DNA of 64,000 bases from an uncultured Chloroflexia bacterium (GTDB taxonomy: Bacteria; Chloroflexota; Limnocylindria; Limnocylindrales; CSP1-4): contig CAWIQP010000007.1 in assembly GCA_963838285.1 (NCBI GenBank), forward strand, positions 194,193 to 258,192, read 5' to 3'. Shown here one piece after another: positions 44,620 through 46,443 of this stretch (the first letter of the stretch is position 1; each line of letters begins with the position of its first letter). The notes under the pieces are model-generated. The model saw only the letters and a list, made by a program, of their open reading frames with translations, had not been told where the DNA came from and did no database searches. The position numbers and the translations under genes were made by a program.

Positions 44620-45625
44620 TTCCCATCACAAGTTGCGTAGGCAACAATCCGGCATTCATCAGCGCCTGGCCAATCAGCCAGGCGTTTTCGTTTGGCTGAG
44701 GGTGGGCCGCGACCAAGGTGCCGCCCTCGACATCGAAGCGGACGAACAGTTCGTGGACTGCTTGCTCGCGGAGGCGATCAGGGACCTTCGGATCACGCCA
44801 GATCGTGCCGAACTTGGCCAGGGCGTCGCGAGCCTTGAGGAGCTCAAGCTCGTCCGGCGAGATTGCCTCGGTGGGCTCCGGGCGCTCCAGACGACGCCAG
44901 GCTCGGCTGAACACATCGATGCCAATCGACCCGGCGGCGAGCTGAGCTTGAAGTTCGGCCCGAGCTGACGCGAGCGAGTCGGGGTCCGGCGGCTCGGCGG
45001 GCGGGCGGAACTGCCGCATGGCCGCGAGCACCTGCTCGATGTTCACCTCGTCGAACCGCAGATCATCGAAGGAGCGGGCCAGCTGCTCTTCATACCACTC
45101 GGCGCGGTACGTGGCCTGCACTCCGCAGGCGGGGCGGGCGCTATGTCGAATGCGCCTGCGGCCGTTGCCCGCGTCGCCGTGGAAGCCCGAGCCACAGCCA
45201 AGGCAGCGCATCAGGTGTACCAGCGGATACGACCGGCGACCGTGGGATCCGCCACCCGCGCTGTGCGCGGTTCGGCGATGCTCGCGGATCGCCTGGACTC
45301 GCTCGAACAGAGCGGGGTCGATCGGCGCCTCGAAGCTCGCCGGCTTCTCTTCCTGGTCGGGCTTGCCCTTGTGGCGGATCGCCCGGCCGGCATACAGCGG
45401 GTTCGTCAGGATCTCGGTTAGTCCGGCCTCGGCCAGGCCGAGTTCGTCGGCGAGGTTCGTGTCGCTCCAGGCACCTGTGGCATACAGCTCGAAGGCGCGA
45501 CGGACGCGATCGAGGTCCGGCCCCTCGACCGGAGCCAGCAGCTGGCGCTCCCCCCACCCGCGCGAAGCCGAGCGGCGCATGGCCTCCCGGATCCGAATAG
45601 AGGCGCCACTTCTGGGCGTAGTGCC
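44620..45625 (-). pseudogene. large serine recombinase, C-terminal about 330 aa only (recombinase domain, zinc beta-ribbon, coiled coil); the N-terminal catalytic resolvase domain is missing at the composition break
   Basis: ...[15 protein letters not shown]...[19 protein letters not shown]...[10 protein letters not shown]...[10 protein letters not shown]... matches the Recombinase + Zn_ribbon_recom domains. The frame reads into the tRNA antisense without a stop. Sequence becomes AT-rich at 45626. Confidence 0.65.
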
Positions 45626-46443
45626 TATATGATCAAAATAATTAATACAGGTATTGATATCGAAAGCTTGTTTGCTAATATCTTTATTAACGGGAAAACC
45701 CCAGCCTTTAAGAGTTTGCAGAACTTCCAGTTGAGTCAAGAAGTTAATACCGCTGACATTACCAACCGCATAAAGACAAATTTTCAGAGGTCGTTTTGCA
45801 GTAACTTTTGGATCAAGCTGACGTAATGAGCCTGCAGCCAAATTTCGAGGATTGGCGAAAGGTTCTTCGCCATTTTTCATCCTTTCCTCATTGAGTTTTT
45901 TAAAATCTTTTATTTCGATATAAACTTCGCCGCGTATTTCTATGAAAGAGGGGATTTTTTTGTCTGCTGCATTTTGGATTTCTTTAGGCAGGGTACGAAA
46001 TGTTTTGAGATTTTGCGTGACATCTTCGCCGGTAGTTCCGTCGCCACGCGTAGCTCCCTTCGTGAAAAATGCCATTTTCATAGATGAGATTTACAGCTAG
46101 TCCATCAATCTTCGGTTCGGCAATATATGAAATATCGTATACATTTTGGTTATACGTTTAATATGTAGATCAAAGTCAATAATTTCTTCATTGGAAAACG
46201 CGTTGGTTAAACTAAACATTGGTGAAGGATGGTTAAAAGAAGCAAATTTATCCAGCGGCGCTGCGCCCACTCGTTGGGTTGGAGATTCCGCTGAGAATTC
46301 TTCCGGATAACGATCTTCCAATTCCTGCAATTCCAGCATTAACCGGTCATATTCGGCATCGGAAATTTCAGGAGCATCCTGCTGGTAATATCTTTTATTA
46401 TGGTATTCAATCTCTTTTCTTAAATCAGCAATTAGTTTTCATT
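45626..46443 (-). pseudogene. ligA: NAD-dependent DNA ligase LigA, N-terminal about 270 aa only, with at least two frameshifts, truncated at the composition break
   Basis: [19 protein letters not shown]...[22 protein letters not shown]...SPTQRVG; then [21 protein letters not shown] in another frame; then [29 protein letters not shown] in a third. The OB, Zn, HhH and BRCT domains are absent. Confidence 0.6.

Follow-up and report, generated by a model that had tools for sequence, protein, structure and literature searches.

Long-read metagenome assemblers are known to make several classes of error, which include stretches taken from minor subpopulations, insertions and deletions (indels) that break open reading frames (ORFs), and chimeric contigs that cross phyla; the diagnostic signs of chimeric contigs are shifts in G+C content, in coverage, and in gene-level taxonomy (bioRxiv 10.1101/2025.04.22.649783). 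The stretch of DNA studied here, a piece of which stands above and which we call the window (64,000 nucleotides in all), comes close to this description. At positions 45619-45621, where part of a large serine recombinase gene meets part of the DNA ligase gene ligA, the G+C content and the taxonomy of the genes shift suddenly and what appear to be different phyla are joined, and the window also has stretches resembling minor subpopulations and indels that break ORFs. The published chimeric contigs were diagnosed from read clipping and coverage shifts, whereas the window was assigned from its sequence and from other assemblies only. A second related case is the contamination of metagenome-assembled genomes (MAGs), the GUNC-type problem of bin chimerism, in which two lineages likewise stand in one presented genome sequence, each part being internally consistent; there, however, the mixture is between contigs and not within one contig. 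A third is the genomic island placed beside a tRNA gene by a large serine recombinase. The left side of the junction shares this layout, with the recombinase gene abutting the 3' end of tRNA-Pro(CGG) and a sister strain holding a different recombinase, but the A+T-rich DNA that follows is not island cargo: the island is cut 1 kb in, the catalytic domain of the recombinase is missing, and the native continuation in a public contig is G+C-rich island DNA.

We regard the join as almost certainly artefactual in one way or another, and the junction holds no biological novelty. The explanation that we favour, with a probability of about 0.55, is a chimeric contig made by a long-read metagenome assembler, which would have united unrelated but co-occurring Chloroflexota and Smithellaceae populations.

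The compositional step itself is real and lies far beyond chance. In 1-kb windows the G+C content is 0.66-0.75 over 1-45 kb and 0.36-0.53 over 46-64 kb, and in 100-nt windows it falls from 0.74 to 0.37 between 45500 and 45650. A change-point search over the whole window places the step at 45618 (0.701 versus 0.443, log-likelihood gain 1820), with only one other and far weaker step, at 56715, and a local maximum-likelihood search over 43-48 kb places it at 45625, with a 2-log support interval of 45607-45627. Tetranucleotide usage tells the same story: the correlation of 4.5-kb chunks is 0.95-0.97 among those on the left and 0.75-0.92 among those on the right, and runs from -0.27 to +0.14 across the break. 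When the left part is cut more finely, all 2-kb chunks of 1-44 kb match the left signature (r 0.91-0.98) and none the right one. The initial annotation, made from the sequence alone, had described an abrupt switch in G+C content at about 45,625, and the change points (45618-45625), the sliding G+C profile, and the tetranucleotide comparison all agree with it. The bar that it drew after position 45630 was slightly off: by alignment the breakpoint lies at 45619-45621, about nine bases to the left, and the bases 'gtgcctatat' already belong to ligA.

This finer position comes from two public contigs, each of which is collinear with one side of the window. The left reference, contig_67158 of ENA assembly ERZ25039480 (248 kb; loci L001 and L097 in our comparisons), was found by look-up of an extracytoplasmic function (ECF) sigma factor encoded on the left; it runs with the window from 25842 to 45621 at about 98-99% identity, and all likeness ends at 45621. 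The right reference, contig_15194 of ENA assembly ERZ25039473 (189 kb; locus L004), was found by look-up of the right-hand pirin. It matches 45619-64000 at about 96% identity overall, with multi-kb stretches that contain no difference at all, and the EF-G, pirin, ABC-2 permease, RbbA, and HlyD proteins are 99.7-100% identical to its own. In the three-way alignment the window tracks L001 up to 45621 and L004 from 45619 on, so that the junction proper is the trinucleotide TAG (45619..45621), common to both parental sequences, and no filler bases separate the two. Nor did we find, within 300 nt on either side, any 12-mer of Oxford Nanopore (ONT), Illumina, or PacBio adapters.

Most telling is what each reference does beyond the breakpoint. 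L001 remains G+C-rich (0.654); it supplies the N-terminal part that the recombinase of the window lacks, Resolvase domain included, and goes on to genes for a Replic_Relax protein and an FtsK/TrwB-like ATPase. L004, read leftward, remains A+T-rich (0.33 G+C) and encodes the remaining 507 residues of LigA (280-786) and then an acylphosphatase. The statement of the initial annotation that neither gene ends naturally thus holds, since the one continues into the Resolvase domain and the other into LigA residues 280-786. Each flank has an independent counterpart, 96-100% identical to it, that continues natively with its own composition, and this favours a mis-join over a biological insertion. The initial annotation had argued for a mis-join as well, and the taxonomy of the two sides and the lack of any mobile-element boundary at the junction support it alongside the native continuations. 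As it had stated, no terminal inverted repeats or target-site duplication frame the junction: over 43.5-47.7 kb we found only short repeats at chance level and no inverted or direct pair around the break, and neither a target-site duplication nor att-type repeats border the A+T-rich DNA, TAG being all that is common at the join.

To place the two sides taxonomically, a single scan of species-representative genomes was made with the left-hand GlnA-III joined to the right-hand EF-G paralogue as one query, and both parts of the query had relatives among the hits. Those closest to GlnA-III are MAGs labelled 'uncultured Chloroflexia' and Candidatus Limnocylindrales (77-85% amino acid identity), and those closest to the EF-G paralogue are MAGs of Smithellaceae, Smithella, and Syntrophaceae (83-88%). 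The two sides of the junction thus evidently belong to different phyla. We take 1..45621, with about 70% G+C, to derive from a Chloroflexota-like genome, in line with its uniform tetranucleotide signature, its collinear public contig, and its GlnA-III relatives, and 45619..64000, with about 44% G+C, to derive from a Smithellaceae-like genome (Desulfobacterota), its native contigs being collinear with it to the window end. The earlier claim that everything downstream comes from a different organism is upheld by this comparison. Both organisms occur in assembly ERZ25039473, on separate contigs: contig_121017 for the left one and contig_15194 for the right one.

The gene cut on the left is the 3' part of the large serine recombinase (44486..45621, minus strand). 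The piece starts at residue 157 of about 534 and comprises 334 residues up to the tRNA, or 378 up to the stop of the ORF at 44486, so the earlier description of a C-terminal portion of about 330 residues without the catalytic domain was accurate. Residues 1-156 were lost to the junction, and with them the entire Resolvase domain: Pfam PF00239 covers residues 20-127 of the intact L001 homologue and is absent from the fragment in the window. The Recombinase domain PF07508 is still recognised in that fragment (E = 5e-5, 23.9 bits against a cut-off of 21.1), and its translation includes a cysteine motif, 'CLGCGSGF...C', to which no Pfam zinc-ribbon model matched.

On the right, ligA is represented by codons 1-279 of 786 (45622..46460, minus strand; in tblastn, residues 5-279 of the L004 LigA align to 46447-45620 of the window). 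It had been described as a truncated N-terminal LigA lacking everything after the adenylation domain. The truncation stands, but it came earlier, at residue 279 and within the adenylation domain, which spans 70-321 in the intact L004 homologue, and the fragment is further disturbed at three frameshift sites, with extra bases at 46448, 46142-46143, and 46071 that spread it over several frames. Pfam accordingly recovers the adenylation domain in pieces (profile positions 3-39 and 63-208 of 253, in different frames), and the KIDG active-site motif stands in a third frame, not in that of the ORF running across the junction. The OB fold, zinc finger, helix-hairpin-helix (HhH), and BRCT domains that follow the adenylation domain in the L004 LigA are absent from the ligA of the window. 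The intact L004 protein (L004 462-2822) is itself unusually long, at 786 residues, and has extra HhH repeats before BRCT, seen as three HHH_5 matches.

The ORF of 531 amino acids that spans the junction (44486..46081, minus strand) was present as listed by the initial annotation, which had called it artificial, and it matches both the LigA adenylation domain (its residues 5-152) and the Recombinase domain (219-269). It is composed of LigA codons from about 129 to 279, about 23 recombinase codons read out of frame, and then the recombinase in its proper frame. The earlier remark that both genes lie on the minus strand and happen to be in frame was right as to the strand only. If the frame of L001 is extended over the break it gives other residues than the fused ORF for about 23 codons, and the ORF stays open only because of a single base near 45555 that L001 does not have and that returns it to the recombinase frame. 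The open frame is evidently a double accident; at the join itself the two reading frames do not truly agree. A look-up among contig-encoded proteins gave no record of this 531-residue product, nor of three other products peculiar to the window: the HIT protein, EF-G as read from its internal ATG, and the truncated UvrD of 303 residues. It is fictitious; it should be kept out of protein databases and should not be read as a domain fusion.

The genomic setting of the recombinase may explain why the break on the left lies where it does. The tRNA-Pro(CGG) gene at 44543..44619 (plus strand; ARAGORN, and Rfam RF00005 with 63.3 bits), which the initial annotation missed together with the island context, adjoins the recombinase gene with its 3' end, and the open frame of the recombinase crosses it antisense. 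This 3' end is also the boundary of a strain-variable island. A second left reference, contig_121017 of ERZ25039473 (16,176 bp; L098), matches the window over 29412-44620 only and ceases to match right at the tRNA 3' end. At the same site this contig holds another serine recombinase, 38% identical to that of the window over residues 185-317. The last 45 or so residues are identical in both proteins because both ORFs run antisense through tRNA-Pro. By this comparison (window 44543-45621, L098 15204-16176, L001 305-7771) the recombinase of the window belongs to a strain-variable island at tRNA-Pro(CGG), which accounts for an identity with L001 of only 94-97% over 44.6-45.6 kb, when the flanking chromosome reaches 99-100%. 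In L001 the island encodes, in this order, the recombinase, the Replic_Relax protein, the FtsK/TrwB-like ATPase, and a Phd/YefM-GNAT protein. To delimit the island, we searched L001 for a repeat of the 3' end of tRNA-Pro, but only matches of 9-15 nt at chance level came up, and the island's other boundary was not located.

The window differs from its references in a peculiar manner that bears on how it was assembled. It is a mosaic, in which long stretches free of differences alternate with patches that have 5-18% mismatches and single-base indels, at 36.9-37.9, 44.6-46.6, 51.9-53.4, 54.6-56.6, and 63.1-64 kb. The second of these patches surrounds the junction. In the patch at 51869..53369, where single-nucleotide indels break uvrD, identity is 84-90% per 500-nt bin and equal across L004, L005, and L006, as well as L007 from 52.5 kb on; in that at 54619..56619, which breaks a tetratricopeptide repeat (TPR) gene in the same way, it is 82-89% to all available references alike; and in that at 63119..64000 mismatches and single-nucleotide indels break nadB. 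The references on this side (L004 to L009) come from several samples and include one NCBI MAG and Logan short-read assemblies; all are equally distant from the window in these patches, and it is the window alone that differs. The noisy patch of the left segment (36857..37857) has 86-93% identity and 17-61 indel positions per 500 nt, equally against L001/L097 and L098.

Nearly all indels of the window lie within or beside such patches. The Mut7-C gene (48294-48811), whose frame is broken by indels near 48.4-48.6 kb, lies outside them. Mismatches in the right-hand patches are biased towards third codon positions (120 of 178 in uvrD, 23 of 25 in nadB), which argues for real divergence and not for random error; in the left patch at 36857-37857 the profile is flat. 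We considered two ordinary sources of such differences and rejected both. Homopolymer errors in raw reads fail in two respects: only about 15% of the indel events fall in runs of three or more, and random error does not give the third-codon bias of the right-hand patches. Strain variation of the common kind, present in other strains as well, fails too, since all other assemblies are equally close to the window there and the window alone deviates. The ligA, Mut7-C, uvrD (303 residues, truncated), TPR, and nadB genes are all broken in the window and intact in L004; these apparent pseudogenes are false and stem from consensus defects.

With these elements, the chimeric contig that we favour could have arisen as follows. 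The left side of the join lies 1 kb inside the strain-variable recombinase island, probably at a node of the assembly graph where branches from strain variants meet. The end of contig_121017 suggests as much: it stops (at 16176) 89 nt upstream of the codon aligned to residue 185, which corresponds to about residue 155 of the recombinase, and the break in the window lies between residues 156 and 157. The right side lies where ligA departs from the reference and has single-base indels, an error profile that we read as a sign of thin coverage. At such weakly supported tips the assembler, or a single chimeric read, might link two unrelated paths, and the join would then have been made by the assembler inside one contig. 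The source would probably be a nanopore assembly made with Flye and Medaka, like those of Microflora Danica, to judge from the contig_N names, the series of ENA accessions, and relatives named 'MFD...'. The Microflora Danica nanopore data were assembled using Flye with the options --meta and --nano-hq, followed by one round of Medaka (PMC12313526).

Several points weigh against this explanation. First, that both parts lie in one contig is something that we infer. Second, the proximity of the left breakpoint to the end of contig_121017, within about two codons, is equally expected if a contig simply ended there and another was appended to it. Third, we infer the connection with Microflora Danica from naming and relatives. 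Fourth, a 42-mer across the junction had no match in GTDB genomes and JGI metagenomes, a result of low power and little weight, as the metagenomes also lacked a match to a 28-mer taken from the right side as a control, and no same-species genome surfaced among the genomes.

The second of these points leads to the strongest competitor, in which no contig is chimeric and two contigs were abutted without a spacer, one of Chloroflexota that ends at 45621 and one of Smithellaceae that starts at about 45619-45622, through a shared bin or the concatenation of records. We hold this to be quite possible, at somewhat under even odds. That contig_121017 stops at the homologous codon (about 155 against 156/157) in a divergent recombinase located at this tRNA-Pro makes the left edge look like a natural contig end. 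Contig termini are moreover noisy in these assemblies, as seen in the first 2.5 kb or so of contig_39992 (L005), which are 72-93% identical to the window and contain several broken genes, and the two sides of the junction are similarly noisy. Against this, the right part begins partway through a single-copy housekeeping gene and has no independent sign of a contig end, the start of contig_39992 being about 1.8 kb away. A chimeric contig remains our preferred explanation because a window drawn from a single record is the simplest assumption and because binners that use tetranucleotide composition and coverage would rarely place contigs of 70% and 44% G+C in one bin.

It is very improbable, in our judgement, that the junction existed in a real DNA molecule, either through a very recent illegitimate recombination or horizontal transfer that inserted 18 kb or more of the Smithellaceae chromosome in the recombinase gene of a Chloroflexota island, or as a library chimera made, e.g., by ligation. 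Such an event would find a suitable setting here, in that the break lies within a mobile and strain-variable island beside tRNA-Pro, a type of locus that acquires foreign DNA, the two organisms co-occur, and the 3-nt microhomology is compatible with illegitimate joining. The content of the A+T-rich segment speaks otherwise. What was moved would be housekeeping chromosome (EF-G paralogue, uvrD, nadB, ABC transporter), at whose boundary there is neither a mobility gene nor a repeat. Both genes are severed in mid-domain, the truncated ligA being essential, and the recombinase able to mediate the event is itself destroyed. The multi-kb stretches without differences from a native, A+T-rich contig of 189 kb leave no room for amelioration, and over the 18.4 kb that are left (45.6-64 kb) the sequence does not return to a high G+C content, although the window may end before any far boundary. 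The junction was not found independently either, which is a weak test. Least probable of all is a variant in which codon 156 or so of the recombinase is a recurrent point of breakage or acquisition and illegitimate recombination has only just added 18 kb or more of the Smithellaceae chromosome to the Chloroflexota island, even if a recurrent breakpoint in this family of tRNA-Pro recombinases is possibly another way to read the coincidence with the end of contig_121017.

The relevance of the junction is therefore one of data quality only, and it calls for a split of the source contig or bin at 45619-45621. No gene to the right of 45,621 should be assigned to a Chloroflexota genome, which leaves no transfer of genes between phyla to report. 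More generally, joins of this sort can be diagnosed without reads, where sister assemblies show how each flank continues natively.

Three features away from the junction complete the description of the window. In the A+T-rich segment, between the Metallophos_2 and HIT genes, about 43 extra and relatively G+C-rich bases (GTGGAGCAACTTTCGGCAGGAGCCGGGGGATTCAAGTTGCGGG) at 47439-47481 can form a GCAACTT/AAGTTGC stem; they are absent from L004 and L005 and were not found in any of the loci that we fetched. The G+C-rich segment has a second tRNA-Pro gene, with anticodon TGG, at 28952-29026 on the plus strand. The same segment has, between the galactokinase and Cys/Met-metabolism genes, two sequences of about 65 nt (35673-35734 and 35768-35832) that are about 87% alike and cross-match among the window, L001, and L098.

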